NCBI GenBank assembly: GCA_964016885.1
Contig: OZ024740.1
Coordinates: 123,752,001 to 123,816,000 of the forward strand
Origin: Eledone cirrhosa
Taxonomy: Eukaryota
Length of the DNA stretch: 64,000 nt
Reading direction: 5' to 3'
A program made the position numbers and the translations under genes. Below, in pieces: positions 4,179 through 64,000 of the stretch. Each line of letters begins with the position of its first letter. The stretch's first letter is position 1. The notes under the pieces are model-generated. The model worked only from the letters and a program-made list of their open reading frames with translations, was not told the DNA's origin and searched no databases.

Positions 4179-4235
4179 CTGTTATATATATTTCAGTGAT
4201 AACCATTATGCAACACCCATGACCTCATCAGACAA
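4179..4235 (-). ncRNA. Minimal type I hammerhead ribozyme motif
   Basis: Minus strand: ttgt CTGATGA ggtcatg...tatcact GAAA tatata TA acag; short stem I, palindromic loop III. Confidence 0.6.
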
Positions 4236-7888: not shown

Positions 7889-8858
7889 GGTTCAATTGGG
7901 GGTAACCACAGTCAGCACAGTACTCAATACATAGCAGAGTATAATGTTTAAGAAAGAAATGGCTTTTACAGGACTAGAACTGTTTCATTCGAAGTTGGTG
8001 TATCTCAAGCAACATGTTTATAGTTATTGTGGGTTGTGTAGATGTTACAGTTGCATGTAGTTCCTGGTGGTGTTATGTAATTGAAGATTGAGGAGTAAGC
8101 TAGATGTGGAGTGAGTGAGCTATAAGCAGCTTGCAAGAAGAAGTAATGAAGAAATCATAGTTAGAAGAAATGCTTGAGATAAATCTTACTAAAATAGTAA
8201 GTAATTTGTGTTTTATTGTTTGTTAGGATATAAAATATGATGAAAATTAATGAAAATGAAAACAAATGAAAAACAAATTTAAAACTAGGTGGTGGTATAA
8301 TGACTAAAATTAATATTCGCTGTGGGCTGGTACGTGGCTACTGTGTAGAAGCCTTGTTGCTGGGTTAGTATGGATAGCTAAAACTTTCAGATGTAAAATC
8401 TTTCATCAAACTCTGTTCAATTTGACAAACCTTTTACATGTCAGAGTATGTGCACAGATGTTTCCAGGTTTTCAAGTCACTCCAACAGATCAGGGTTGAT
8501 GTTTTCTTCCTAATGAAATGTGTTTCTGCTATTCAGAGGCTGATTGCATCTGTTTGCTCATCAATCACTTTTCGTTGTTATGTTTCTTCCACATTCCTGC
8601 TTGAGTTAGAACATTGTGCTCACTAGTGTTGTTTTTTCAAATTGCTCCTTCACTCTGTGGTGTAACTTTTGCTATGTGGAGATGATGTAGTGAACATTTT
8701 AGTAAGATTTATCTTGATCTTGTGTTTCAACTATAATTTCTTCCTCTTTTTTCTTTCCTATAGCTAACTGAACCTAGGCCTAGCTTACCCTTCAATCCTC
8801 ACTTATGTAACACTAGCAGGGGCTACACACAGCTATAACATCTACACAAACCACGATA
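7889..8858 (-). mobile_element. Decayed Penelope-like element: GIY-YIG C-terminus, inverted partial pLTR, tail
   Basis: Minus-strand translation ~8672-8490 gives KLHHRVKEQ...VIDEQTDAISL*IAETHFIRKKTSTLI (R..EH and E..I....P.LN pattern); inverted repeat ~8025-8200 vs ~8695-8858; tail tatactctgctatgtattgagtact at 7920-7942. Confidence 0.6.
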
Positions 8859-11045: not shown

Positions 11046-11053
<8 letters not shown>

Positions 11054-11328
11054 ATACTTTGGGGGGGGGGGGGGGTCATGCTGCCATTAAAAACACATGC
11101 ACCTTTTGGTTTTCATTTCAGTTTTTTATCAATTTCCGGTTGGTTGGTTTAAAATAAAACCCTAGTCACTGAGGAGGTCACAGAATGTGTGATAGCTTTG
11201 ACAATATATAAAAAACCACCCAGTTATTGAACCAACCAATCAACCAGAAATTTATAATGAACTGAGTGAAAACCAACAGGTGTGAGTGTTTTTATTGGCA
11301 GCATGACCCTCCCAAAGTATAACAATAT
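11046..11328 (+). mobile_element. Fold-back (inverted-repeat) element with central degenerate hammerhead
   Basis: Arms attgttatactttggg..gtcatgctgcc / ggcagcatgaccctcccaaagtataacaat; centre gtca CTGAGGA ggtcaca-gaatg-tgtga..agctt tgac; (ta)n on left. Confidence 0.75.
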
Positions 11329-11405
11329 CTGTTTCAGCATACATTTTCAGAAGAAATCTTGCAAAATAAATTCAAAAACGAAATAGCGGTTGCAAGTGGA
11401 GGAGA

Positions 11406-12720: not shown

Positions 12721-12735
12721 ATATATATAAAGAAA

Positions 12736-12921
12736 CAAAGAAGGTATGATAAGATACCAGGTGGACCATAACGAACCAGAGTACTCGATACTTAGGGTAG
12801 TAGAGTGGGTAATAGGAAAAGAGTCAGGATCCCGACAGCCGAGCTCCAGCCATTCCAACAGCTAGTTCGGATCTAGCTGTCATAACAGCTGGAGCCCAGC
12901 TGTCAGGGTCCTTACTCTTTT

Positions 12922-12957
<36 letters not shown>

Positions 12958-13149
12958 AACATGTAGGACCCCGACGGCTGAGCTCAAGCCATTTCGACGG
13001 CTAATTCTGGACTCCAGAATTAGCCGTCGAAACGGCTTGAGCTCAGCTGTCGAGGTCCTACTCATTCCTATTACCCACTCTACTACCCTAAGTATTGAGT
13101 ACTTTGGTGCGTTATGGTCCATCTGGTTCCTTACCACATTTCCTTCCTT
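12736..13149. mobile_element. Y-shaped composite fold-back element (two hammerhead-derived hairpin+tail units head-to-head)
   Basis: Outer ~75 bp inverted tails, hairpin 12813-12924, (ta)n, hairpin 12955-13069; same layout at 63237-63628. Confidence 0.85.
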
Positions 13150-14574
13150 ATATATATATATATATTCAGAACTTTTATTACTCCACTAACAATGCAATAG
13201 ACAGGCAAAATTATTAGAATCCCCAACATCATCACTTAACATCTGTTATTTACTACATATAAATAATATGCAAACAAAAAAAAACAGAAGATATATAAGC
13301 ATATATAAAATTGTTATTATTGTTATTTATGACAAAACAAAGTAAAGTGTTGTAAGAAAAAGAAATGATCTTAATGAGATTGAAATAGTTTTTACTTTTC
13401 CTTGTTAAGATACCAATGTTTTGTGTTAGTGAATAAAGAAAATATATCATTGTTATTGTTGTGGTTGCTATTGTTGTCATCGTTATTATTTCTTTTGTTT
13501 TATGGTCTAAATTTGGATATATATTTTTTTATTTTTGTAGCTACTACTTTTCTTTCTTTATTTATTTTCTTTCACTTGTTTTAAATTCTTATTTTACATG
13601 TTTGACTGTAATTTATTTGTATGTGTTTTGATACTTTGGTATAATTAACTGACTTAATAATCTTTCAACTTTGAGTGATATTTTCACAGTGTAGCCGATT
13701 ATCAGAGGCTATGAATATTTGAAGAGTTTAAACTTGGCAGCACTTGAAAACGCAAGTAGTTTTGTATCTTGTTATAATAAAAGCAGAAACAAACCAAGAA
13801 ATAAACAAACATAAAGAACAATATTGAGCCATGAGTAATAACATTGCTTGAAGCCTGTTCCTTTCCTTTTTTCAGATTCATATTGATTGCCAAAGAATTA
13901 AATCTGACATAGGAAATCCATGCACTTAATGACCTCAGTAGCTTGGTATTAGTGGAAGTGAGAATTTTTTCTGAAAGCTAAGTAGTAGAGATATAGGTTA
14001 AAAGAAATGAAGAAATGGCAAAGAGAGCATGTAACAACAAAGAGTTGGCAGGAATTAGAAGCAAAACATAACAACATATAATGAAAGAATTAAAAACAAA
14101 AGTTAAACTGGTATTGGTATGAAGTTATATACAGTAATTTAGACATCGTAGGTAAATTAACTAAGACACAAACAGTGTAATAACTAAAATTACCATGATA
14201 TTTCTTGGGAGATGAAGGGAAAGCAACAACAAAAATGGATGGGTTTAGGCTAGGTATTAAAATGATGTATGAACAATAAGAACTTGGGTAATTGGCTATT
14301 ATTATCATCATCATCATTGAGGCTGGTAGAATCATTTGAGTACTAAACAAAATGCTTTGTGGTATTTAGTTATGGCCATCTACATTCTGAGTTCATATCC
14401 AACCAAGATCATCTCTCTGTGGCTGATAAAGTAGCAATTACATACTGGAGGTTGATATAATTGAGTTCCCCACCCAACAAATTGTTGGCTTTGTGCCTAC
14501 CTTAAAAAGCATTATTATCATCATATGTTCATTTTCCACAATGACATTAGTTGGACAGATTGTCACATTCTGAG

Positions 14575-14640
14575 AGATGACAGATCAGATAACCAAGTTT
14601 TGAACATATATTCAAAACTTGGTTATCTGATCTGTCATCT
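14575..14640. repeat. Perfect 30-bp-arm palindrome with 6-nt loop
   Basis: agatgacagatcagataaccaagttttgaa-catata-ttcaaaacttggttatctgatctgtcatct. Confidence 0.95.
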
Positions 14641-18129: not shown

Positions 18130-19286
18130 ATACATACATGTGCATACCACTTACACTGAGAAAACAAGACTTAGTATATAAAACAAAATCAAAATGCAAA
18201 TGCAGAAGTACAAGAATAGTCATTGATGGCTTAATGTCTCTCTCTCTCTCTCTCTCAGCACCCAATGAATGACACTCAGTGAATGATCAGCAAGGACAGC
18301 AGAGCGGTTTTGGGGGGTTGGGATAATGAAAAGAAACATGCACACGTACACTTACAATATGTATTTATCACTATCATCATCTTTCCTTTCTCCTGACAAA
18401 TGATGACAATGATGATGTTAAAATATTGAAATACATTTATACACTGAATCTCAATTTCAATTGAAATTTGGGCTGAGGGTTATAGCCCATGAGACCCCAC
18501 TTAGTACTGTAGCAACAGATCAAGAGTAGGTGAATCAAAGAAGTCAGTTTAGTTTACACCATCTTTTGGAAGGTGAAAGCTCCAGTGAAGACAAAACTGA
18601 TGAAGTCACACCAATAGCCATCAATTGTAACTCTCCAAATATCTGCTATAGAGGCAGTTTCATTTTCTATCTTGTCTATCTCTATCTATGTACCTACTCG
18701 AGGCAAAGGTTGGTGCTTGAAACCAGATTGTGCCATACCTGCACAAATCATCTTTTAGGGTGGATCTCCAGGTCTTCTTTGATCTTTTTATCCCAGCTGG
18801 CAACTATGACACTACAGTTCTTGCTGGTATATTGTCCCCCATTCGTAGGACATGTCCTACCAACTGCATTTGTCTGTTCTTGATGACAGGGCTCAAGTGT
18901 GTGGCTTTGACTCTCTAAAGCACATCTTTATTTGTGATCTTGTCTTGCCATCTAATGCTCAGGATCTTTCAGATGGTATTTTTTGTTGGAAAGAATCAAG
19001 TTGTTTTTAGGTTCCTCCATGTGTCAGTAGCATAGGTTATTGTTGAGATAACAATTGACAAGAATAACTTCAATTTTGTATGTGATGTGAGATTCTGTGA
19101 TTTCCATAACTGGAGTTTGTTGAATAGTCGAGTTTATTTGATCATTCACTGAGTGTCATTCATTGAGTGCAGAGATAGAGATTAAGCCCTCAATGGCTAT
19201 TCTTGCTCTTCTGCATTTGTATTTTGATTTTGTTTTATATACTCAGTCTTGTTTTCTCTATGTAAGTGGTATGCACATTTATGTAA
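18130..19286. repeat. ~155 bp inverted repeat arms (18130-18288 / 19139-19286) enclosing a decayed minus-strand RTE fragment (~18450-19120)
   Basis: caatgaatgacactcagtgaatgatca / tgatcattcactgagtgtcattcattg and the rest of the arms align in reverse complement. Confidence 0.85.
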
Positions 19287-19613
19287 ACTTACTTAAAATT
19301 TACATTTATGTAAAGTTACTTAAAATTCTTGTAGACATGTATTCAAAAAGGTATGTTCCTTCTAAATAAGGCAAACTATTCATGTTTTGATATCCATCTC
19401 ATGCCAAAATATTAATGCAAATCATAATCTAGAAGATCACAAATATTTCCCCTTGCTAGTTCCTTTAAGAAACAATATTAGGTAATGAATAAAAACAAAA
19501 CAATTAGCCATCTTGACTATACAGAATATAACAAGGAACCTTGGTTTTTACTATGCTTTTTTTTCAGTAATATAAAGAATGTTGAACATACACCACTATT
19601 TGATGATCAGAAC

Positions 19614-19667
<54 letters not shown>

Positions 19668-19672
19668 CATAT

Positions 19673-21096
19673 ATGTATGAGGAACTGGATGTTGAGACAG
19701 AGCCATTCACCAGAGAGGAGCTTCAGAGAGCCAAGAAGAGGATCAAGGAGGGCAAGACTCATGGAGAAGATGGAGGGGCATCAGAGGTGATGAAGAGGTG
19801 TAATTTTGATGATATCATCCTGGGGTTCTGTAACGGGGCACTGGAGAAAGGAGTTGCCCTGAATCAGTGGAGGATCAGTAGCATCGTCCCAGTGCCAAAG
19901 AAGGGAGATCTCTCTAACACCAACAACTACAGGGGGATCTCACTGACATCACTTGTGGCAAAGACCCTCAACAGGATGATTCTTAACAGGATCCAACCTG
20001 AGATGGAGAATAAGTTCAGGGACAACCAGAACGGCTTTAGAGAGGGTAGATTAACCACCAGTCACATCCTGATGCTGAGGAGGATATTAGAGGGAGCTAG
20101 AGCAAAGTGCCTTCCTGCGGTCATGGTTTTCATTGACTTTAGGAAGGCCTTTGATTCTGTGGACCGTTACTGCCTGATGAAGATCTTACAGGCTTATGGA
20201 ATCCCCAAGAAGATAGTGGACCTGATATCACTGCTCTACAGCAACACCAAAGCCCAAGTCATTACACCTGATGGGATGACAGAGTTCTTTGAGATACTGG
20301 CTGGAGTGCTCCAGGGAGATACATTGGCTCCCTACCTTTTTATCATCGTAGTGGACTATTGTATGCGCCTTGCACTGGAGAAACACCATGACTCTGGCTT
20401 TACTGTAGCACCGGCTCAGAGCAGGAGAATTAGGGCGAAAAAGGTATCGGATACTGAATTTGCTGACGACATAATTTTGGTGACAAATACAGTGAAGGAG
20501 GCAGAGGATTTGATGCGGGAGGTTGAGACTGTGTCGATGAGTGTGGGGCTGAGAATGAATGAGACTAAAACAAAATATCTGGTAGAGAATGTTGAAAAAC
20601 CAGAGGGGATCACTAATGTAGGCGGGAAGCTGCTAGAATTGGTTGAAGGCTTCCTGTATTTGGGAGCAAAGATTGGGAATACGGAAGATGATGTGGTTGA
20701 GAGGAAGAGCAAGGCCTGGGCGGCGTGCCACAGCTTGAGATTGGTGTGGAAGTCGGACCTTCGTAGAGACCTGAAAATCCGCCTCTTCATTGCTGTAGTG
20801 GAGTCTGTGCTGCTGTATGGGTCTGAGACTTGGACACTGACCAGGAAACTCACTCAGATGGTGGATGGGTGCTACACGAGAATGCTGAGGATGGCTCTGA
20901 ACATTAATCAGTATACACTGAGGATGAAAATCTCAGAGCTGTATGGGAGCATCCCAAAAGTCAACTCAAAAGTGACACAGAGGAGACTGAGGTTAGCTGG
21001 AGATGCAGGACATGGCAGGGATAATGAGGGACAGAGACCGCTGGTGAGAACTCGTCCATGGATCTCGGGAATTTTACCCGCCTTAGATAGATAGAC
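19673..21096 (+). mobile_element. RTE-like LINE family C, 5'-truncated, open RT ORF of 473 aa
   Basis: NYRGISL, QNGFR, FIDFRKAFDS, GVLQGDTLAP, FADD, YLG, YGSETW; (taga)n tail; starts in (ta)n. Confidence 0.93.
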
Positions 21097-23351: not shown

Positions 23352-24435
23352 AGGTTAACTTTGCCTTTCATCCTACGGGGTCAATAAAATAAAGTACCAG
23401 TAATGTACTGGGTATTTGCTGGCCTTGTGCCAAAAGTAGAAACAATTATAATTTTCTTTAAGACCATTTTTTTAAAAAGCTATGTTGCATACACCAGCTT
23501 AGTAACAAGAATCCATCAAAATATTTGATTATTTTCAAAATTATTTGAAAATCACTGTTGCAATAGGTGTTCAGACTATTCACAGAAAATACCTGATATT
23601 TATAAAGATTGACAGATTGTTTTAATGGCTTAGTGAGATGATGTGAGGGTGTAAGGGAAGTTATTCTCAGTTGAGAAACCTGGTTCAAATATTTCTACTA
23701 AATGCAGTTAAGGGCCAAATGGTGGTGTTAAACCAGGCAGTGGATTACTACTGCTATCCAAGTAAAACATTACTTAATAGAGATAGAAAATGTTGCATTA
23801 ATAGCTCTCTGTCTGGTATTGAAAAAGGTTGGATGTGCATCAGGTTGTTTGATAAGATGTACCACCTACTCATAGAATTCGGATGTGAAGTGGCTGAGCA
23901 TTTCACACACTCATGTACCCTCAACTTAACAAAATTCTCAATAACACTCAGCATGGCACATTATGACATGACTGCACCTATGAATTATAGGTAATTTCCA
24001 TCGAATGGGCTTCCATATACTCTCTATCTTATTTAATTTCTATCACAAGGTTTGGGTTGATCCAACACTTTGGCAAAATAAACTGTCCAACATGGCATGC
24101 AGTGAGACCAAACCTGAGATGTCATGATTACAAAGCTAACTTCTTAACTACTCAGCCATGCCTGTTTCTATTTGTGGATTTTATTTTTCATGTTCATTGG
24201 TAATTTCGAAAACGGATTGCTTTTCTATTAATAGATTTGAGGCCATAATTTATTGTTAAACTATTACAAATCTATGGGTGTGAATGCTTATAAAAATAAA
24301 CACCTCCTTCATTCTCAGTATCTCTTTATTTCCATGTGTATACATGGAGTGAAAAGAATGAAGGAAGATAGAGAGAGAGAGCGATACAATATTTATATGT
24401 AACTACATTTTATACATATTCACAGCGACTATATA

Positions 24436-24519
24436 CAGGGTGTGTGAAAAGAAATGCGCTATTTACACACACACACACATATGTGTGTGTAAATAGGGTG
24501 TTTCTTTTCACACACCCTG
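24436..24519. mobile_element. Tc1/mariner-type MITE
   Basis: TIR cagggtgtgtgaaaagaaa / tttcttttcacacaccctg with TA on both sides. Confidence 0.8.
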
Positions 24520-25118
24520 TATAACCTTAGAACTTTATTAATGTGATGTGTGTTCTATTGCAAGTCCTCCATTACACATATGATTCTACGCAAACATTAT
24601 AACTTAATGTAAAATAAGCTTCAATTGATTTTTAAGTTAATCATATGTTAATGGGAGAAAATTTAGGAGAATATACATGCGTAGGAACATCAGACACCCA
24701 GACACATCCATACATATATACATGAATTGCCAACCATAATATACAAAGGAGGAATTTGTTAATGGATCGTTTAAGTTTAAGTAAATCATTTGTCTGAGGT
24801 CTGCACCTTAGGTGGCTGCCTAGTTAGCTTAATGGTAGTACCAGCCCTGAAATTATGAAATCATTTTTGACATGTGACATCTTTCTAACATATTGCATTA
24901 TGGAAGGAAGATTCTGTGATAAAAAAAAAAGTATTCTCTGAGATTAGAAATTCTTTGAATGATGAAACTATTTGCAGAGATGAGATACTGAAACATTATT
25001 ATATATGCAGGGTAAGATTTATGACAACTGTACATATTAATGTAAGCATAGACGTATTTACACAGATGAAAAAAAAACATCATAAGACTGTGATATATAT
25101 ATATAATGATTATATATG

Positions 25119-25163
<45 letters not shown>

Positions 25164-25166
<3 letters not shown>

Positions 25167-25538
25167 GGAAAACGAAATATCAGTGATGCATCGGAACTCA
25201 ATTTGTTGTGTGTTTCAATTGTTTCCCTGGCGAACAGCTTGAGGTGCGATCTGTGTGTGGATCGATCTGACTCTGGATTCACAGGTTCCTCAGAGGATAT
25301 GCTCCTAAGAGGATATGCTCCAAAATCAATAGACGTGTCCAAGGAACCTGTGAATCCAGAATCAGGTCGATCCACACACAGATTGCACCTCGCCGGGGAA
25401 ACAATTGTAACACACAATAAATTGAGTTCTGATGCATCACTGATTTTTCGTTTTCCATTCTATCATAATCTGCTCCGTAGGAGCATAGAGTGCTCAACCG
25501 GCATCCTGCCTATGGAAGCATCTTAGCTACCATTAGAC
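25164..25538 (+). mobile_element. Fold-back element with hammerhead and 3' tail (Penelope pLTR-like)
   Basis: ~125 bp inverted arms 25164-25290 / 25342-25459; right arm gtgt ccaagga...ggg GAAA caattg TA acac; left arm retains CTGAGGA on minus; tail with cattctat..atagagtgct hairpin; (ta)n both sides. Confidence 0.8.
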
Positions 25539-25545
25539 ATATATA

Positions 25546-26208: not shown

Positions 26209-27352
26209 AAACAAAAAAGACAGTTATTTTAGTTCATCCCTATGTATTTTATTATACATATTTCATTGATGTATGTCTTATGTATAACATAAGTCAAAAC
26301 ATATTCTATTCAGATAAACTCCTCAGGAGATGTAGATATCATTTGATATGCAGGTGATCAGACGAGCTATTCAGTTCAGTGGCCGGCAAGCATATGCCTG
26401 GAAAAAACCTCCACACAAAATATATTGTATGAGTGGGAAAAGTATTACAGTTGGTGTTGCCATTTTTGAACTGGTTAGAATATGAGGTTACTTCTTCTTC
26501 TTCTTCTTCGGTCAAGGTTAGACACATTTTCTCCAATCGTCCTGATCGAGCATGACATTTCTCAGTTTATCGATGTTATCAATGTTGGCATCTTTCAGAA
26601 GGGTATCAATGAATGAGATGGTTTCCAGAGCACAAGTTGAGATGCTATCTCTTCTGGATGACGGATGCAGTGCCCAGCCAGTTTCATTCGTCTGCAGGCA
26701 ACCTTTTTTGAGACAGGTGGTAGTGATCTGTATAGTTCCTTATTTGTCAGCTTCTGTTTCCAAGAAATATTGACAACCATTCTGAACATCCTCATGTATC
26801 CTCCGTCAAGTCTCTTGCACAGCACTTTGTCAACAGTCCACATTTCACTGCTGTAAAGCGGTACGGACTCAACAGTTGCTAGGTTAATATGAGGTAAGTG
26901 GATCGGTCAAATAGATAAAAAGAAAACAAGAATGGGCTGTTAGTCTGTTTATTTATCACATATGTTAGATTAAATTAGATACTATATCGAAATTTTTGAT
27001 ATTTATTCAAAGATGCTGAAGTAATAATGTAATTGGCTTTTGTTTTCTTTTTATCTATTTGACTGATCCGGTAATTTCATATTCTAACCAGTTCAAAAAC
27101 GTCAACACCAACTGTAATATTTTCCCCACTCATACAGTATCTTTTGTGTGGAAGTTTTTTCCAGGTATATGCTTGCCGGCCACTGAACGGAATAGCTCGT
27201 CTGATCACCTGCATAACAAATGATATCTACATCTCCTGTGAATTTTATCTGAAGAGAACATGTGTTGACTTATGTTATACATAAGCCATAGATCTTTGAA
27301 ATACATATAAAAAACAAATAGGGATGGATTAAAGTAACTGTCTTTTTTGTTT
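26209..27352 (+). mobile_element. Large fold-back element (~320 bp arms) with hammerhead, interrupted by an RTE insertion
   Basis: 26209-26490 plus 26886-26930 invert to ~27040-27352; right arm ttttat CTGAAGA ...gacttatg-ttata-cataag... GAAA tacata TA. Confidence 0.85.
26491..26885 (-). mobile_element. 5'-truncated RTE fragment with (GAA)n tail and target-site duplication
   Basis: ORF 26595-26843 (LDGGYMRM..ISWKQK..RRMKLAGHCIRH); aatatgaggt duplicated at 26479 and 26886. Confidence 0.85.
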
Positions 27353-27646: not shown

Positions 27647-30600
27647 CAGTTGCATTTATCTTGCTTTATGTTCATACGAGTTATCACCAAGTCACAACCA
27701 GTGATCTCAAGAGACAACAAGGTCCGCCATGTTCAAGAAAGAACATACATACTCACACATGCATCTTTAGTGTTTAGACTTGTGATGTACTTATATTGAC
27801 AGAATCTTCCTTAGTATATGGGCAGTTCCCATTAGTACTATCTTTTGTATTTCTCCTATACGCGGGTTTCATGGGATTTGCGATAAGTAATCATTAGACC
27901 CCTTAGGTATCATTCCCAGAGTGCCCACAACCACTGGTATTGTTTTAGTACTCAATTTCCACATTTTTCCAATTTCTATCTCCAGGTCCTTATACTTGCT
28001 CAATTTTTCAAATGTTTTTATAGATACATTCTTGTCTATTGGAACGGACATATCAATTAGCAGGCATACCCTCTTTTTAAAGTCCTTCAATATTATATCA
28101 GGTCTATTTGCATCTATTTTTCGGTCTATTTAGATGCTAAAGTTCCACAAGATTGAGATGTGATCTTTTTCAAGTATGGGAAGTGGTTGATGCTCCCACC
28201 AATTATTTTGATGGGGCAGGTCAAAATGCTTACACATTATCCAATGTATGTATTGCGCAGCTCTGTCATGCCTGTTTAGGTATTCGGTTGGAGCTATAGG
28301 ACTGCACATTGAAATTATATGGTCAATGGTCTCTGGTTGTTTTTTGCATACACGGCATAATGGGCTGCATCCATTTTTTTATTATGTTGGCTTGGTAACT
28401 TTTTGTTGGCAGACACTGATCTTGTGCTGATATAATCAGTCCCTCAGTCTCCGATTTCAGTCCAGAGGATGCCAACCACTGATGGGTTAAAGTTTTGTCA
28501 ACATCAGGATTGTTAGCTCGTTCTGGGTATTTTCCATACAGAGGCTTTTCTTGCCATTTCTTAGCCAGTTTCTGTAGCAGTTCTTTCTTTGCAGTTACTT
28601 TTACCTGCTTTGCTTTTTCTGTGTTTTCCATTTCAGCAGTAAATGGGACTTCTGAAATTTGTAGTCCATTACTGTATCTTTGTGCATCTTTTGTAATGGA
28701 ATATGATCTTTTGATGCTTTCGTGTTTCAAAACAAGTTTGATCATCCAATCATGTGATTCCCTTAGATATGTAGATAATCCAATTGTTGCAGTTTTCAAC
28801 GCAATGTCTAACTGGACTAACCCATGCTCTCCTTCTTTCCTAGGAAGATATATTCTATCTATATCTGCCTTAGGGTGATGCATTCTGTGCATGGTTAAGA
28901 ATTTTCGAATTTTTGTATCGAGCCTACGGATCTCTGTGCTTGACCAGTTGATGACATTGTAACTGTAGGTTACTACTGGTATGGCAAGCGTGTTTATGGC
29001 ATCAATCCTATTCCTTGCATTCAATTCCGTTCTTAAGATTGCTCTTACTCTGTGGTAACATTCCTTCCTTATCCTTTCCCTCATTGTCGAGTGCTTGATT
29101 CCGTCTCCTTCACAAACACCTAGATATTTGTAAGTTTTTTCTTGATCAAGTTCTCTTATCACGTTCGCCCGATCAAGATTAATGTCTGAACTCTTCAGCA
29201 GCTTTCCTCTGGTGAATGTTGCTTTGGCGCATTTATCTAGTCCAAACTCCATTTTAATGTCATCACTGAACTGCTCCACAGTGGATAATAGCCCTTGCAA
29301 TTGTTCATCATTTTTTGCAAATAGTTTCAGGTCATCCATGTAGAATAAGTGATTAATGTTTTTGTCATAGACTCTATATCCATGTTTTGTTTCATTGAGC
29401 ATTTTACTTAATGGTATAAGTGCGATGCAGAATAAAAGCGGTGATAAAGAGTCACCCTGAAAAATTCCACAATTAATATTAACTTCTCCAGCTTCCAGTG
29501 ATTTTGTTTCACTATTCAAAAGGAGTGTCGTTTTCCATGTCTTCATACTGAATGACAAAAACCTCCTGACAACGGAGGATATTTTGAAAATCTCTAAACA
29601 TTTTTCAATCCAACTGTGTGGCAAACTATCGAATGCTTTTTTACAATCTATCCAAGCAATTGATAGATTTTTGTGTCTATTATGACAATCTTCCAGTATC
29701 ATTTTGTTAACCAAAAGCTGATCCTTACAGCCATATGAGCCTCGTTTACACCCTTTCTGCTCAATGGGAAATAGGTCATTTGTTATCAGGTGGTCATATG
29801 TGTTTTCAGTTAGGACTGATGTTAACATTTTATACATTGTGGTCAAGCAAGTTATCGGTCTGTAATTTTTGGGATTGTTTGTCTCATCATTCTTCGGAAG
29901 CAGGAATGTAATGCCGTTAACTAGCCATGATGGTATCTTTTCTGGCTCCTTAACTATTTCATTGTAAAGTTGGGCTAACAGCTCATGAGACTCTGTGAAG
30001 GCATTTATCCAAACATTTTGTATTTTGTCTTTTCCTGGGGATTTCCATTTGCTGGTTTTTCTTAGAGCCAAGCGCAACTGTTCAACTGTTATGTTTTCCC
30101 ATATTTGTTCCTCAAGGTGAGCTGTATCTTTCATTTGTCTGTCTATCCATGGGGCATGTATGTTATGAACTTTTTCTTCGGCCCAGATCTTTTCCCAGAA
30201 TACTTGCACTTTCTCCTTGGGTGGTATTGATTTAGCAGTTATTGTTGACTTACCAATTTTTCTGTAGAAGTTTCTTTGGTTGTTTTTGAACATATTATTG
30301 TCCTTATAGAATCTAGATCGTTTTTCAAAGCGCCTTATACGAGCAGCTTTGGCCGACACTTTTTGCTTGATTATTTCTATCAGCATGTCTATGTCACTTG
30401 TTGATTTTATACTATACTTTCTTTTCAATTTTCTAAGTTTAGTTTGTTTAACATGTTCACCTACTTTATAGTTTGTTAAAATTTCTATGTCAGATCGGAG
30501 AAGGTTTATTTGGCAATTGATGTTCTCAAGTAGATTTCTTATGGGAATTCCTTTGTTTTTTTCATCTTCACTCCACATAAGTGAGTGGTGACTTTAGCCG

Positions 30601-49227: not shown

Positions 49228-49357
49228 AACAAAGGAAGTGTAGTAATGCACAAGAGTATTCGATACATAGGGTAGTAGAGTGGGTAATAAGAAAAGAGTC
49301 AGGACCCTGACGGCTGAGCTCCGGCCGTTTCGACAGCCGCCGGGATCCTGACTCTTT
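49228..49357 (-). mobile_element. Single, internally deleted unit of the 12736/63237 fold-back family
   Basis: Minus strand: gctgtc GAAA cggc-cggagctca-gccg TC agggtcctgactc then tail attacccactctactaccctatgtatcgaatact. Confidence 0.8.
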
Positions 49358-49619
49358 GCATCAAATGAGACAAAACCGTCTAATCCATGCTAGCGTGGAA
49401 GATGGATGTTAAACGATGATGATGATGATGATATATATATATATAATATATATATTATATTATTGGCAGGGTCGGGCGCCATGCTTTCCAGCACGGTCTG
49501 AATTCAAATCCCGTCGAGGTTAACTTTGCCTTTCATCCTTACCGGGTCAATAAAATAAAGTACCAGTAATGTACTGGGTAATTGCTGGCCTTGTGCAAAA
49601 GTAGACACAATTATATTAT

Positions 49620-51690: not shown

Positions 51691-51749
51691 AATACTGCCT
51701 AAATTGCATCTCAACCATATGGGAGATTATCAAATATAAAGATTTACAT

Positions 51750-54700
51750 ATACATTGATGTATGCTTTGTGCAAGAGATTAGATGGAGAGGAGAGTCTGC
51801 TAGAGTCCTTGTAGGAAAACGTCAGCGCTACAAATTTTTCTGGGTGGGTAATGACAATGGGATGGATGGTGTAGGTATTCTATTAGCTGACAAATGGGTA
51901 GATGAAGTAATCTCAGTGAACAGGGTAAATGCAAGAATCATTAAACTCAGACTAGTCCTGAATAAAACAATTACCACAATAATATCAGCGTACGCACCCC
52001 AATCGGGGTTGCCAGATGAACTTAAGGATAGGTTTTACGAGTCCCTAAAGCACACTACTGCTCTAACAAACGACAATGACTTCCTAATCATTGCAGGAGA
52101 TTTTAACGGACACATAGGTAAACACTGTGACGGCTTCAATAGAGGCCATGGGGTTGGCACAAGAAATGAAGAAGGATTCAGACTTCTAGAATTCTGCGAA
52201 GCCAATGATATGTTGATATGTAACACAAACTTCAAAAAACCCGACAACCACCTGATCACCTATAGATCAGGGCAGCATTCTAGTCAGATAGATTTTTTCC
52301 TCATCAGAGGAGGTGACAGATGGACAGCCGTAAACACAAAAGCCTTCCCTAGTGAGGAATGTACCTCCCAACATAGCTTAGTTGTCAACGACCTCATGGT
52401 CAGAACTAGACGAACCTGGAAACAGATGCCAACCTGGAGAAGAAAGATCTGGAAGCTGAAAGACCCCTCAGCCAGTAACAGATTTAAAGATATTTTACTC
52501 AATGCCTACGACAGTAAAGAAGAACAGATAGAGACATTCAATGTAGAAGAGCACTGGGAGTTCCTAAAATATAACTTACTAGAGGCAACGGATGAGATCT
52601 GTGGCTGGAGTAAGACCACAAGCAGGAGGAGAGTGATTTGGTGGTGGAACAATAAGGTAGATGAGGCAGTTAAGGCCAAGAGACAGGCATGGAAAGAATG
52701 GAAGAACGGGGGAAGCAGGGTACATTACATAGAGACCAAGAAGGAAGCTAGGCGACAAGTATACTTAGCTAGGAGGGAAGCAGAGGATAGAAAATCCAAG
52801 GATGTTTTGCAACATGAGGACCAGAAACAGGAGGTGTTCAAGATTGCGAGGCAGTGTGTCAAAGAGAATTGTGATGTCATTGGAGAGAAGTGTATCCGGA
52901 ATGATAAAGGAGAGCTTGTCCTCACAAGTGCTGAGAAGAAAGATGCATGGAAGAGCCATTATGAGAGATTACTAAATGAGGAGAATGCATGGGAAGAAGA
53001 GACCCTACCACAAGTAGACCCTATAGAGGGGCCAGCAGTACAAGTTCGCAGCACCGTATTAAGTAAGGCAATCAAAGATATGAAGATGGGGAAGGAAACC
53101 AGTCCATCGGGTATAGCTGCCGAGATGCTGAAGGAATCTGGGTCTGTAGGTCACACTATAACCACACGTATTGTTAACCAGGTAATACTAGACGGTGTCA
53201 TACCAAAAGATTGGTGCAGTAGCATCATTGTCAACTGCTACAAAGGTAAAGGTGATGCACTAGATAGAGGAAACTATAGAGGTATAAAGCTGATGGACCA
53301 GGTCATGAAAGTAACAGAAAGAGTTATAGCATAGTTGATTAGGGACCAGGTGAAACTAGATGAGATGCAATTTGGGTGTGTACCAGGAAGAGGCACCACT
53401 GATGCCCTCTTCCTTGTGAGGCAGTTACAGGAAAAGTACCTAGCTAAAAGTAAGCCACTCTACCTGGCATTTATCAATCTCGAGAAAACCTTTGACAGAC
53501 TTCCCCGTGCTATAATCTGGTGGGCTCTTAGAAAACTAGGATTAGATGAATCGCTTGTGAAAGCTGTACAAGCCATGTATAGGGGAGCAGTCAGCAAAGT
53601 TAGGATTAGCAATGACTATAGCGAGGAATTTAGCATACAGGTCAGTGTCCACCAGGGCTCTGTTCTTAGCCCTCTCCTGTTCATCATAGTCCTGCAGGCA
53701 ATAACGGGGGAGTTTAAGACTGGATGCTCATGGGAACTCCTGTATGCAGATGACCTCGCACTTATAGCTGAATCTATGGTAGAACTAGAGAAGAAATTCC
53801 AAACTTGGAAGCAGGGACTAGAAAGAAAGGGTCACAAAGTCAACCTGACAAAGACTAGGGTCCTTGTAAGTAAACTAGAAAACAGAACCCAGATCCCCTT
53901 AGAGAAATGGCCTTGCTCAGTATGGAGGAAAGGTGTAGGTAGGAACTCCATTCTCTGCCCCAAATGCAAACAATGGGTACACAAAAGATGTAGCGGGATC
54001 ACAGGAAGCTTAATTAAGAATGTAGGCTTCATATGTAGCAGCTGTGCTGGGACAGCAAGCAGCAAACAGCCACAGGAAACACGCACAACCAATCTCTGTG
54101 AGGGCTCTGTAGAAACAGTAGACAGCTTCTGCTACCTAGGTGACTGAATTAGCAGCAGAGGTGGGTGTTCAGAAAGTACAATAACTAGGGTAAAAACGGG
54201 ATGGAAGAAGTTTGGGGAACTACTGCCACTGCTAGCTTCAAAAGGCTTTTCCCTCAAAATGAAAGGCAGACTGTATGATGCGTGTATCCGAACAGCGATG
54301 TTGCATGGTAGTGAGACCTGGGCTCTGAAGGTGGAAGACTTACATAGATTAGAAAGAAACAAAGCCTGTATGCTCCGATGGATGTGTAATAGTAATATAC
54401 GCGAACGACAAAGCATAAATGAATTGAGAGAGTGACTGAGCATAAGAGGAATTAAATGCTGTGTGCAGGAGAGGCGGTTGCGTTGGTATGGACATGTGAT
54501 GCGTATGAAGGATGACAGCTGCATAAAAAGGTGCAGAGCACTAGAAGTCAATGGAAACCGCGGAGTGGGGAGACCCAAGAAGACCTGGGATGAAGTTATA
54601 AAAGCCGACCTTACCCAATTACACCTCTCAAAGGCGATGACACATGACTGTGACCTCTGGCGTCACGCAGTAATACAGAGTACCCGACCTCCCATGGTTA

Positions 54701-55305: not shown

Positions 55306-55375
55306 ATACAAATAATATATATATATATATATATTTATAATATAAGATCAAAAGATGGTTAAAGGAGTTCCATGT

Positions 55376-55444
55376 ATTTTATTATGCGCATTTCAAAAAC
55401 AAACATCATCATGCAATAATATTTGTGTTTTCATCAGATAAAAC
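55376..55444 (-). ncRNA. Type I hammerhead ribozyme, intact core
   Basis: gttttat CTGATGA aaacacaaatattattgcatgatgatgtttgttttt GAAA tgcgca TA ataaaat. Confidence 0.8.
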
Positions 55445-55580
55445 AGGAGAACATGATATGAAGGGTAAAAAACACTTGTGGATAGTGCAGTTTTAAATCA
55501 ACATATGTTGATATGTTGATATGTTGATTTAAAACTGCACTATCCACAAGTGTTTTTTAGCCTTCATATCATGTTCTCCT

Positions 55581-55649
55581 GTTTTATCTGATGAAAACAC
55601 AAATATTATTGCATGATGATGTTTGTTTTTGAAATGCACATAATAAAAT
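55581..55649 (+). ncRNA. Type I hammerhead ribozyme, intact core, loop III tgcaca
   Basis: Mirror copy of 55376-55444 with one G>A change in the palindrome. Confidence 0.75.
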
Positions 55650-55804
55650 ACATGGAACTCCTTTAACCATCTTTTGATCTTATATTATGTATACTCCAGT
55701 ACTACAAACTGTAGAGTGCTTCTTATCCGATATCTGCATTGCTTTATTGTACTACAATAAAACTCACCTCCTACATATATATATTTATATATATATATAT
55801 ATAT

Positions 55805-56548
55805 ATCATCATCATCATCATCAACGTTTAACGTCCGTGTTCCACGCTTGCATGGGTTTGGACGGGGGTAGTCCCACTTGAGGCAAGAGTGATTGTCTTG
55901 CTCGCATAGGACTGTCTGGCAGGTTTTCTACAGTTGGATGCCCTTCCTAACACCAACCACATTTACAGTGTGGGTCTGGGAGGTTTTCACCGTGTTGCCT
56001 ACACGGCCACATTACAGCGTGGACTGTGTGTTTTTTTGTCGTGACACCTACACGATCTCATTTGTTTCGGCCTCGATGGCGTGGCACCAACATAACTTTA
56101 CATAGAACGGGGTGGTGTGGATGGGGTGGGGGTGGTGGTGGTGGGACGGGGTGTATTTTGTTAGAGATGCCTACTGGCTGGAGTAGGTTTTACTATATAT
56201 TTAGGTAAGGCGGGTCTTCTCTGTTACTGAGTACCGCCAAAGGTCTCGGTCCAGTGACATTGTCTTGGAGAGGTGTAAGTGTGTGATGTCGGAGTTTATC
56301 AGCTCGTCCCAGGTTTTTCTAGGTCTGCCTATTCCGTGACTACCGTCTATCTTTATTGCCCTGCACTTTGTTATACAGCTATCGACTTTCATGCGCATCA
56401 CGTGTCCATACCAACGTAGCCTTCTCTCGAGTAAACAACATCTGATCCCTCTTATCTCTAATTTTTTCCTTAGTTCGTTTATGCTTTGCCGTTCACGTAT
56501 ATTACTGTTACACATCCAGCGGAGCATGCAAGCTTCGTTCCTCTCTAG

Positions 56549-56549
<1 letters not shown>
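55805..56549 (-). mobile_element. RTE family A, 5'-truncated
   Basis: ORF 56201-56527; near-identical to 4763-5510. Confidence 0.93.
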
Positions 56550-56576
<27 letters not shown>

Positions 56577-56579
<3 letters not shown>

Positions 56580-58440
56580 CGTTAACTGTTATAAGGGTAA
56601 AGGAGACGCCCTAGATAGGAGTAACTATAGAGGCATTAAATTAATCGACCAGGTCATGAAGGTCACAGAAAAAGTAATAGTGCAACTAATCAGAGAGCGA
56701 ATTGATCTAGATAAAATGCAGTTCGGGTTTGTGTCAGGAAAAAGTACCACAGACGCTCTTTTCATTGTACGACAACTACAGGAGAAGTACCTAGCTAAAA
56801 GTAAACCCCTATACTTAGCTTTCGTCGACTTGGAGAAGGCCTTCGACAGAGTCCCCCGTTCCATTATCTGGTGGGCTCTTAGAAAACTAGAGTCGATGAA
56901 TGGCTTGTGAGAGCTATACAAGCCATGTATAAAGAAACAGTCAGCAAGGTTAGAATTAAAAACGAATATAGTGAAGAGTTTAGTGTAAAAGTTGGTGTTC
57001 ATCAGGGCGCTGTTCTTAGCCCCCTACTATTTATTATTGCCCTCCAGGCTATAACAGTGGAGTTCAAGACCGGCTGCCCATGGGAACTCCTATACACAGA
57101 TGATCTAACGCTCATAGCTGAATCAATGGCCGAGCTAGAGAAGAAATTCCAAACATGGAAGCACGGGCTAGAATCAAAAGGCCTTAAAATTAACCTGGCT
57201 AAGACTAAAGTTCTAGTTTGTAAGAAAGAAAATAAGGCGGCGGTCCCCTCCGGGAAGTGGCCATGCGCAGAGTGTAGGAAAGGCGTAGGTAGAAATTCCA
57301 TTTTGTGTCCCAAATGCAAAGTTTGGGTTCATAAAAGATGTAGTGGGATCACAGGTAAGCTAACTAAGAACATAGATTTTACATGTGGCCGGTGTTATGG
57401 TGCAATAAGTAGCAGCAAGTGCCCACAAAATACTAGCTCTTTCAATTGCGCAGAGGGTTCTATAGAAATAGTGGACAGCTTCCGTTACCTGGGCGATAAA
57501 ATCAGCAGTGGGGGAGGGTGCTCTGAGAGTACTGTAGCTAGAGTCAGAACTGGTTGGAAAAAGTTCAGAGAGCTTATACCACTATTAGCCGCTAAAGGGT
57601 TCTCCCTAAAAATGAAAGGCAGGTTGTACGATGCCTGCATACGAACAGCAATGTTGCATGGCAGTGAGACCTGGGCATTGTGTGCAGAGGATATACGCAG
57701 ACTAGAGAGAAACGAAGCTTGCATGCTCCGCTGGATGTGTAATAGTAATATACGTGAACGACAAAGCATAAACGAACTAAGGAAAAAATTAGAAATAAGA
57801 GGGATCAGATGTTGTTTACTCGAGAGAAGGCTACGTTGGTATGGTCACGTGATGCGCATGAAGGACGATAGCTGTATAACAAAGTGCAGGGCAATAAAGA
57901 TAGACAGTAGCCACGGAATAGGCAGACCCAGAAAAACCTGGGACGAGCTGATAAACTCCGACCTCACACACTTACACCTCACCAAGACAATGTCACTGGA
58001 CCGAGACCTTTGGCGGTACTCAGTAATAGAGAAGACCCGCCTTACCTAAATACAAAGTAAAACCTACTACAGTCAGTAGGCATCTCTAACAAAATACACC
58101 CTGTCCCACCACCCACACCCCATCCACACCGCCCCCCTTCTATGTAAAGTTATGTTGGTGCCACACCATCCAGGCCGAAACAAATGAGATCGTGTAGGTG
58201 TCACGACAAAAAAACACACAGTCCACGCTGTAATGTGGCCGTGTAGGCAACACGGTAAAAACCTCCCAGACCCACACTGTAAATGTGGTTGGTGTTAGGA
58301 AGGGCATCCAACTGTAGAAAACCTGCCAGACAGTCCTATGCGAGCAAGACAATCACTCTTGCCTCAAGTGGGAAAACCCCCGTCCAAACCCATGCAAGCG
58401 TGGAACACGGATGTTAAACGATGATGATGATGATGATGAT
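56577..58440 (+). mobile_element. RTE family A, 5'-truncated, one frameshift
   Basis: ORFs 56656-56910 and 56907-58049 with RT motifs (YTDD variant) and intact C4HC3 finger; (gat)n tail. Confidence 0.95.
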
Positions 58441-58518
58441 ATATATATAATCAAGGTTTAGCAAATATGAAAAAGTTTCAAAATATATTAAAAAAAATTC
58501 ACTGTACTTACTATGGTT

Positions 58519-58605
58519 ACCTTTACCGAATCGGTTTCGAGTCTCAAAAATAAATGGAAAGTCCTTGCAGGCTTCCATTGTAAAGATAAACTCTCGTCAG
58601 AAGGT
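58519..58605 (-). ncRNA. Type I hammerhead ribozyme, fully intact consensus
   Basis: acctt CTGACGA gagttt..aatggaag..ctttccatt..agactc GAAA ccgattcgg TA aaggt. Confidence 0.85.
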
Positions 58606-62393: not shown

Positions 62394-63236
62394 TTAAGGA
62401 AAATTAAAAGAATTCATTTTACTGTAGCATCAAATAAAGATAATGTTTTCAAAAGACTATCAATTATATTAATTGTGAATGATACTGATGATTATTGGAA
62501 CTTAACAGATGAAGGTATGTGAGTATTGGGTGAGGTGAGGTGATGAGTGGGAAGAGAGTTAAATTGCGATGCATACATAGATTTTCAATACTGGATTTCT
62601 CTGTAAATAATATTTCACAACATCTCTTCACAAAGATTGAAACTACTCGAGATCCACCTCTAAATGACTGTCTGATAGCACTGACAGATGCAACTGACAT
62701 ACAACAAGTATTTTAAGTACAGACAGATTAATCTAAAGCAATGTCTAAAAATTAATTCAAACTCTGCCGAAGGGTGTTTTATTATAATTTCTCTCTTCCT
62801 CTGTGTGTGTGTGTGTGTATATATGCATGTATGTATGTATGTGTTTATATATATATATAAATATATATACGTACATACATATATATATATATATTTACAT
62901 AAATATATATATATATATGTGTGTGCGTGTGTATGTGTGTATCTCACAACAAAGGCAAAACATACAATAGCTTGAGTAAAGGTTAAACTCTTGACCAATT
63001 GGCAAAGATTGGTGCTAATTTATCATGTCAACCTTTGGCTCTTTTGTTTTGTTTGGCTTTAATAAGGACATATCAAGCTTATTTCAAAGGTAAGATAAAC
63101 CACCAAATTAGATGTCTACATGTCACATTGACATGATAGAACTAGCAGTAAAATCTCCCTCAGTTTAAACTTTGGATATTGTTTTTATAGGTACACCCAA
63201 AAAGACAGGTTTGGTAATCAGAATTAAGTATATATA

Positions 63237-63628
63237 GAAAGTGTGGTAAGAAACCAGGTGGACCATAACACACCAGAATACTTGGTACTTAGGGTAGTAG
63301 ATTGGGTAATATGACCCCAATGGCTGAGCTCCGGCCATTTTGACAGCTAGATCCGAACGTTGGCTGTCGAAATGGCTGGAGTTCTGCCATCGGGGTTCTG
63401 ACTCTTTTCCTATATATATATATATATATATATATAGGAACGAGTAGGACCCCGACGGCTGAGCTCAAGCCCTTTCGATGGCTATTTCTGGACCCAGAAT
63501 TAGCCGTCGAAACGGCTTGAGCTCAGCCGTCGGGGTCCTACTCGTTCCTATTACCCACTCTACTACCCTAAGTATTGAGTACTTTGGTGCGTTATGGGCC
63601 ACCTGGTTCCTTACCACATTTCCTCCGT
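63237..63628. mobile_element. Second Y-shaped composite fold-back element
   Basis: Same tail-hairpin-(TA)n-hairpin-tail order and same subtype order as 12736-13149; right unit gccgtc GAAA cggct-tgagctc-agccg TC ggggtcc. Confidence 0.88.
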
Positions 63629-64000
63629 TATATATATATATATATAGAAATCACATGAATCAAAGTTCTGTTCAAACCATTCATTAGCTTACAATTGTTT
63701 CGTCCAAACCGAGGTTTGGCGTCTTCGGAAAAATGTTTCAATGATTGTTTACATACATGACCTCCTTTCCAAAACAAGAGACATACAGAAACATATGTAT
63801 ATATCGATGCACAGTGGGGTGACATCCATTATAATATTTTTGCATGGCAATTTAAATTCAAAAATTAAAGTTAAAATATAACATCGGCAGTTTACGAAGA
63901 TAATGCAAGAGGATAGTTTGTTAGTCATTTGAAGTAGTTAGTGCATGCAATAGTTACACGTGGGGCATGCACGTGTGTCTTATTTATATAAGATTATTGT

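Follow-up and report, generated by a model that had tools for sequence, protein, structure and literature searches.

We read the palindrome at position 55337 of the window, the 64,000-nt stretch of Eledone cirrhosa DNA analyzed here, as the terminal ~260 bases of a Hydra-clade Penelope-like element (PLE) of the autonomous kind, placed head to head twice and with a tail on only one of the two; it likely arose in a single insertion that copied one short non-coding RNA twice, a reading to which we give a probability of about 0.75. The observations that carry it are the identity of the arms with the pLTRs of ORF-bearing copies, fixed outer ends, a variable centre, sequence variants that are mirrored between arms, and arms that jointly either stop at or pass a putative +1 site. 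The preliminary description had treated this and similar copies as a separate, ORF-less class; they are instead termini of autonomous PLEs that we place in the Hydra clade, with haplotypes common to long and short copies, and the notion of a new class of ribozyme retroelement does not stand. An inverted pLTR, a tail, a hammerhead and a (TA)n target are all already published PLE traits; what is new is the fixed internal start of the inverted arm, the mirrored variants, and the joint stopping or passing at +1.

In the accessible part of PMC8557442, the Hydra clade is described as carrying hammerheads, targeting (TA)n and including a cephalopod family. Pairs of minimal hammerheads on opposite strands, 100-700 bp apart, have been identified as truncated PLEs, with circular templates proposed (PMC4209133, in the portion available), and for PAc, a Poseidon element of Anolis, the available text of PMC11167929 reports that two internal RT start sites flank the tail in vitro and that both strands are nicked and extended. 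As far as the accessible sections of PMC8557442 and PMC11167929 go, the origin of inverted pLTRs, one-sided tails and tandems in PLEs is still open. PLEs are a poorly understood class of elements, and the thousands of copies considered here likely record how they insert.

Structure of the palindrome at 55337

The structure originally given for this site, a palindrome with about two arm mismatches, a tail on one side only and (TA)n on both, agrees with our delineation (Table 1), as does the claim of intact cores on both strands, given that a hammerhead descriptor of our own matches each arm (55588-55642 on the plus strand, 55437-55383 on the minus strand). The plus-strand ribozyme, with a predicted cut after 55642, retains its core, and the palindrome of its loop III is broken by the change at 55638 (ATGCACAT for ATGCGCAT); in cofolding, a dimer helix was formed only by the left-arm version of this loop. 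A read-through transcript had been suggested to fold either as dsRNA or as a ribozyme; the former is supported by a folding energy of -280 kcal/mol, but the ribozyme would be foldable only if the transcript started at the centre.

Table 1. Coordinates of the 55337 palindrome and of the other palindromic elements in the window
Feature	Position	Strand	Remarks
Whole palindrome with tail	55337-55774		~170-nt arms, 2 internal mismatches, (TA)n on either side
Inverted repeat pair	55332-55506 / 55519-55693		98% identity
Internal arm mismatches	55387/55638 and 55465/55560
Inverted arm, no tail	55337..55506	-	family A pLTR, from internal start site back to +1
Direct arm	55519..55688	+	3' UTR/pLTR of the autonomous (putative Hydra-clade) element, from putative +1 (TCA+1TAT in long copies)
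Junction	55503..55526	+	first 8 nt of putative transcript, ATATGTTG, three times (55503, 55511, 55519)
One-sided tail	55689..55774	+	86 nt, between two inferred RT start sites
Tail stem	55693-96 / 55714-17	+	ACTC / GAGT, common to other families
Left (TA)n target tract	55317..55336		additional TA runs as far left as 55185
Right (TA)n target tract	55775..55806
Minimal type I hammerhead (predicted), direct arm	55580..55650	+	stem I 55580-87/55643-50, CUGAUGA 55588-94, GAAA 55631-34
Family D mini	11046..11385	+	arms 11046-11149 / 11226-11330, ~55-nt tail, decayed core
Family B mini	12730..12926	-	tail on left, half ribozyme
Family B mini	12953..13150	+	arms 12953-13071, tail 13072-13150
Family C mini	25160..25545	+	reiterated centre, tail stem
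Family E inverted insertion	26209..27352	+	hammerhead related to family A, split by insert
Family B copy with tail	49228..49360	-	arms only ~20 nt
Family B mini	63236..63412	-	left-hand tail
Family B mini	63434..63630	+	right-hand tail

Source element

A link to Penelope had been proposed from the outset, and the arm and tail at 55337 indeed correspond to the final ~260 nt of a 3.7-kb autonomous PLE in the same genome; the comparison of arms with Penelope pLTRs thus yielded identity with the pLTR of an ORF-bearing element, not with TIRs of a DNA transposase element. A 25-mer from the tail of this family (family A) had 11,543 exact matches in the 3.0-Gb genome, versus 0 for the reversed control, and tandem pLTR junctions had 213 exact matches. 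Locus L062 holds a unit of 3,709 nt in which tandem pLTRs enclose an open frame of 808 aa; L121 has an 821-aa open frame and a terminus that differs from the window arm and tail at 6 of 257 nt, and four further loci (L374, L375, L376 and L386) have open frames of 820-821 aa. Mobilization by a PLE RT/GIY-YIG protein, as originally suggested, is in keeping with these autonomous copies with open frames of ~800 aa.

The L062 protein contains RWI, DKT, CxCX5C and CxxC/CxH motifs, with no CxxC between GIY and YIG and no CCHH motif, and its predicted fold (pLDDT 82) had TERT as best structural match (E 1.7e-8). The one protein relative with a name is of cephalopod origin. A Pfam search with this protein gave no match, with GIY-YIG found in 2 of 28 aligned relatives, and a PDB sequence search with the ORF returned nothing useful. 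Placement by motifs against the published description fits an EN+ PLE of the Hydra clade as the source of family A, although the clade definition has an RWK-like motif where L062 has RWI. Beside this full-length element (L062 7069-9899, minus strand) lie helicase-like frames that we take, by motif, to be typical of Helitrons. Residues ~579-654 of the L062 (minus-strand) model form an Asn-rich, low-confidence stretch between RT and endonuclease, which recalls the N-rich inserts described for bdelloid Penelopes in the accessible part of PMC3846280. A tandem array at 550-2340 of L380 consists of an expanded 60-nt unit that belongs to the 3' UTR of family A.

Links to coding sequence were less direct for the other families. 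Family B, with 32,054 exact tail matches, is joined to a Hydra-like ORF in L216, where the frame is broken, and family E lies 570-813 nt downstream of the ends of Hydra-like ORFs in 6 of 25 loci. Family D had only two candidate ORFs, 2.1-2.2 kb away, with no ORF tie established, and no ORF link was found for family C in two 10-kb flanks.

Anatomy of family A insertions

The sample consisted of 96 tail matches fetched from the first 100 listed, which represent the start of one contig. Five of these were internal tandem junctions; the other 91 were terminal tails, which correspond to 89 insertions once two that were counted from both ends are dropped. An inverted arm with its outer end 81-96 nt from the 3' end was present in 70 of the 89 insertions, whatever the arm length; the end lay at 82 nt in 64 rows, although the exact base is blurred by TA microhomology. 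Insertions were short on both arms in 50 of the 91 rows and reached the ORF in 29, and no inverted arm was found by our own chain rule in 14. Tails on both arms were seen in 2 insertions of the fetched sample, and when 30 loci were anchored on the tail-less end instead, two insertions had no tail. In nearly all copies, any target-site duplication is hidden by (TA)n on both sides.

Arm lengths were compared in 67 standard insertions, excluding three that run through the whole unit. The inverted arm was longer in 31 and the direct arm in 11, with the two equal within 20 nt in 25; little or no arm overlap was found in 11 of the 67. In L064 and L374, each of the two arms covers the entire 3.7-kb unit and continues across the tandem junction, and in L064 both arms end at one shared upstream point.

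Across 40 insertions in which both arms were of sufficient length, divergence was 1.0% between an insertion's own arms, versus 5.3% for others. Common subfamily variants were mirrored in both arms in 155 of 158 cases and confined to a single arm in 3; among rare variants, 18 were mirrored and 66 were found in a single arm. Since rare variants are mirrored too, mirroring could in part reflect gene conversion. The palindrome had been presumed to be a feature of the mobile RNA; with variants mirrored and centres varied, it was likely made at insertion and therefore not carried by that RNA.

Short copies and the putative +1 site

Palindromes centred on the putative +1 numbered 1,976, and arms of one subfamily spelling that pass +1 gave 2,440 exact matches. 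At least 20 centre types were seen among the first 49 listed; 18 of these 49 have a perfect CATATG, and the first bases are repeated in 5-6 of them (as judged by eye), with three repeats in the window copy. G is frequent just before +1, an observation that is confounded by reiteration and GATA microhomology; the sample used for this list of junctions and of the base before +1 includes 30 loci picked because they resemble the window copy.

Termination at +1 was seen in about 50 of 100 terminal arms (a few of them miscalled by our rule), whereas none of 11 tandem copies lying upstream ended there (p 1e-3). Where both arms reach +1, both stop in 16 insertions, both pass in 24 and only 1 is mixed (p 2e-10). 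With stops correlated between arms and none in upstream tandem copies, +1 therefore behaves as an RNA 5' end, putatively that of a distinct short RNA, as judged from the DNA ends. The stop base is the A of TCATAT in family A and the A of TTAGT/TCAGT in family B, and lies near CAGAAAG in family C; in families B and C, too, the 5' end is fixed and falls on a YA step. We presume that these stops, which in all three families look like the initiator consensus, reflect such a site. For Penelope itself, an internal pLTR promoter downstream of +1 has been described (PMC2377424, in its available part). The claim that short copies derive from a non-coding RNA is thus likely to be correct, the short class being bounded by +1.

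The hammerhead ribozyme

Family A has the features of a type I hammerhead, i.e., a CUGANGA / GAAA / UH core and three stems, conserved among copies, which makes it a predicted ribozyme. In 122 family A arms, N7 alone of the core varies recurrently, and stem II pairing is kept in 6 of 6 recurrent variants; the hammerhead therefore appears to be conserved in the source lineages. Our descriptor matched 86 of 99 tail-less family A ends, while none of the 108 Rfam matches at E<=10 was to a hammerhead family, all being miRNA-type hairpin noise.

Family B bears on whether the short copies need the ribozyme. Its minis begin inside loop II and are without the 5' core of the ribozyme, which is present in long family B copies (with a U3-A8 variant in 9 of 15). 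As these minis have only half a ribozyme, cleavage would not be needed for short copies, and the hammerhead is likely inherited from the pLTR rather than required to make them. We also identified 122 palindromes centred around the predicted ribozyme cut. Among 50 such centres listed, about 15 lie on the ATGCGCAT palindrome and ~9 lie no more than 2 nt from the predicted cut, the latter being confounded by AT microhomology. As a test of a circular template, tandem copies lying upstream were compared with those lying downstream (13 comparisons); 56 differences in 3,359 nt were found, with two asymmetries, each seen twice, a result that weighs neither for nor against a circle.

Tail and tail stem

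In 1.6 Mb of DNA fetched from the genome, clustering of 2,080 ends that abut TA revealed many families with one tailed and one tail-less end. About 15 families have an RCTC...GAGY stem 5-11 nt inside the tail; in an unconstrained scan, one covarying pair of this stem was A-U in 9 families, G-C in 5 and G-U in 2, although the two G-U families show A-U when read by eye. The background in singletons was mixed (42 of 896, compared with 33 after shuffling). The stem was absent from family D and from several other linked end pairs. Our guess is that it may serve as a protein-loading site. The flanks of L031-L386 contain dozens more TA-abutting families with minimal hammerheads and paired tailed and tail-less ends, often stacked in one TA run.

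Proposed mechanism and alternative explanations

Fixed arm ends, mirroring, and joint stopping or passing at +1 together make two cDNAs on one RNA the likely origin of these insertions. The RT/GIY-YIG protein of the element would nick a (TA)n tract on either strand, and a single RNA would serve as template for two primed cDNAs: the one begun at the 3' start site would keep the tail, and the other, begun 82-87 nt inside, would lack it. Both cDNAs would run toward the RNA 5' end, with overlap calling for strand displacement; the first bases would sometimes be re-copied, and microhomology would serve to join the cDNAs. The likely source of the ~2,000 exact short palindromes is a transcript with its start at an initiator within the pLTR, mobilized in trans, or, alternatively, priming at the 5' pLTR of the mRNA, while longer copies would come from templates that run through the +1 site. 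In LINE-1 twin priming, two primers on one RNA give rise to a 5' inversion; here, by contrast, the second start is fixed and the two cDNAs overlap, which yields a palindrome.

Short copies might instead constitute a self-propagating, non-autonomous lineage, SINE-like in that copies with their own promoter and tail are transcribed and beget further short copies. The discrete class of short templates fits such a lineage, as do the position of the Penelope promoter downstream of +1 (PMC2377424, in its available part) and the precedent of non-autonomous PLE derivatives (MRC1, retrozymes). The tree speaks on both sides: among 63 rows, short and long copies are interleaved with 12 label changes, versus 20.9 in shuffles (0-1 of 500), a clustering of the short label that includes a group of five short copies and leaves room for short copies as sources, but well-supported branches require no fewer than 5 of the label changes, every variant in the group of five also occurs in long copies (L116, L132 and L134), and the two kinds of copy have pLTR haplotypes in common, with long copies in every well-sampled haplotype. 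We therefore consider self-propagation unlikely as an independent class, while it is compatible with two-fold copying of one RNA as a source of that RNA. Fold-back self-priming, in which a cDNA or antisense template folds at CATATG and copies itself into the second arm, has been proposed for bdelloid Penelopes in the accessible part of PMC3846280, and could draw on the perfect CATATG centres and on the centres near the ribozyme that lie on a palindrome; we judge it very improbable here, as an inverted arm that is longer in 31 of 67 insertions and lacks overlap in up to 11 would need later deletion, and as there are 19 rows in which only one of the arms stops at +1.

Long palindromes are unstable. 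This instability, along with the ATAT microhomology that recurs at junctions, could in principle make the fixed centre an RT stall or a deletion hot spot rather than an RNA 5' end, but such an account hardly accommodates the findings that the same sequence stops none of 11 cDNAs in upstream tandem copies, that stops are correlated between arms and that reiterated first bases always start at +1. A MITE of a DNA transposon was anticipated as a likely mislabel, and the resemblance is real, in that the copies are small, have no ORF, and show inverted arms and TA flanks; the probability that they are MITEs is nonetheless close to nil, given asymmetric ends, arms that consist of an RT element's 3' UTR, a continuous range of lengths up to the full one, and centres that are made anew. 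We rejected this assignment on finding neither symmetric TIR ends of a transposase element nor a fixed internal sequence. Classification as a non-LTR retrozyme was also rejected, as the copies are head-to-head and end at +1 and tail sites. Annotation tools could file the tens of thousands of hairpin (dsRNA-forming) inserts as MITEs.

Beyond copying of one RNA by twin starts, we tentatively propose, as a possibility that we hold to be rather doubtful, that Hydra-clade PLEs run on two RNAs. A short, uncleaved, capped pLTR transcript would be twin-primed beside the conserved tail stem to give palindromes, which might themselves be sources, with the 5' end re-copied in a telomerase-like manner; a ribozyme-excised circular or multimeric RNA would give long tandem copies with a regenerated pLTR. 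If so, the genome would hold a ten-thousand-event record of unsolved PLE integration steps.

Comparison with known systems

In common with the Hydra clade, as described in the available portion of PMC8557442, the family A element has a C-terminal GIY-YIG, DKT, RW(K/I), a CxCX5C linker and CxxC/CxH, as well as a hammerhead near the 3' end, a (TA)n target, an inverted 5'-truncated copy and a one-sided tail. It differs in unit length (3.7 kb here, <3 kb there), tail length (60-100 nt versus 30-40) and the presence of >10,000 family A copies; that portion describes neither a discrete class of palindromes made of the pLTR alone nor a tail stem that covaries. With regard to PAc (PMC11167929, accessible text), shared features are an AT-rich target, insertion that does not need the ribozyme and a tail set by two start sites. 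PAc belongs to another clade, however, and here the starts are ~85 nt apart with one per arm, and the tail itself contains a stem, located immediately 3' of the inner start; for PAc in vitro, both strands were used without a difference in start site, whereas each has one site here.

The minimal PLE hammerheads of PMC4209133 (available part) likewise have a palindromic helix III, a long helix II and the U3-A8 core variant seen in family B; helix II of the predicted family A ribozyme differs in closing with A-U pairs. Animal retrozymes, according to the accessible part of bioRxiv 10.64898/2026.07.22.740005, are also non-coding, pLTR-derived, equipped with a type I hammerhead and dependent on PLE protein, but are head-to-tail and bounded by the ribozyme cut, whereas the copies here are head-to-head and bounded by +1 and RT starts. 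In the accessible literature, which included PMC13282606 and PMC8969392 and left most subscription papers outside, we found no discrete short template class, one-start-per-arm counts or tail stem. The copies thus provide countable genomic evidence for two cDNAs per RNA, for a non-coding template and for a candidate protein-loading stem, and a ~260-nt minimal substrate together with open-frame proteins is now defined for in vitro testing.

Other elements in the window

Seven sites in the window had been described as sharing one plan that includes a complete or partial hammerhead. The plan is shared, and the sites do represent several families (A to E), but a ribozyme in each was not borne out: our descriptor matched one of the six other sites (26209, left arm), with half, decayed or core-like versions in the rest. 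The sites at 12736 and 63237 each consist of two family B elements back to back over a TA run, with the 3' half of the ribozyme only. The core is decayed in the family D copy at 11046 and complete in other family D copies, and the family C copy at 25164 has core-like motifs, mostly CCGAGGA, and a long branched domain II. The exact family C tail pattern matches only the window copy because that copy is mutated, and a tail of the family E copy at 26209 is absent within the window.

Further descriptor matches in the window are at 58450-58600 and 4183-4231 (both minus strand), the former being a member of a TA-abutting family with 5 ends in the fetched DNA. The inverted repeats at 8025-8858, 14575-14640, 18131-19285 and 24432-24523 gave no match to the five PLE families examined. 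A (GAT)n-ended family adjoins many TA runs, including those on either side of the 55337 element, and LINE-type RT frame fragments are found at 37-1399, 19607-21091, 51703-54144 and 56446-58046; 56122-56559 and 57691-58128 form a 438-nt inverted pair of LINE-type/(GAT)n-family sequence. Finally, an open frame of 756 aa at 28326-30593 (minus strand) resembles a non-LTR retroelement protein.
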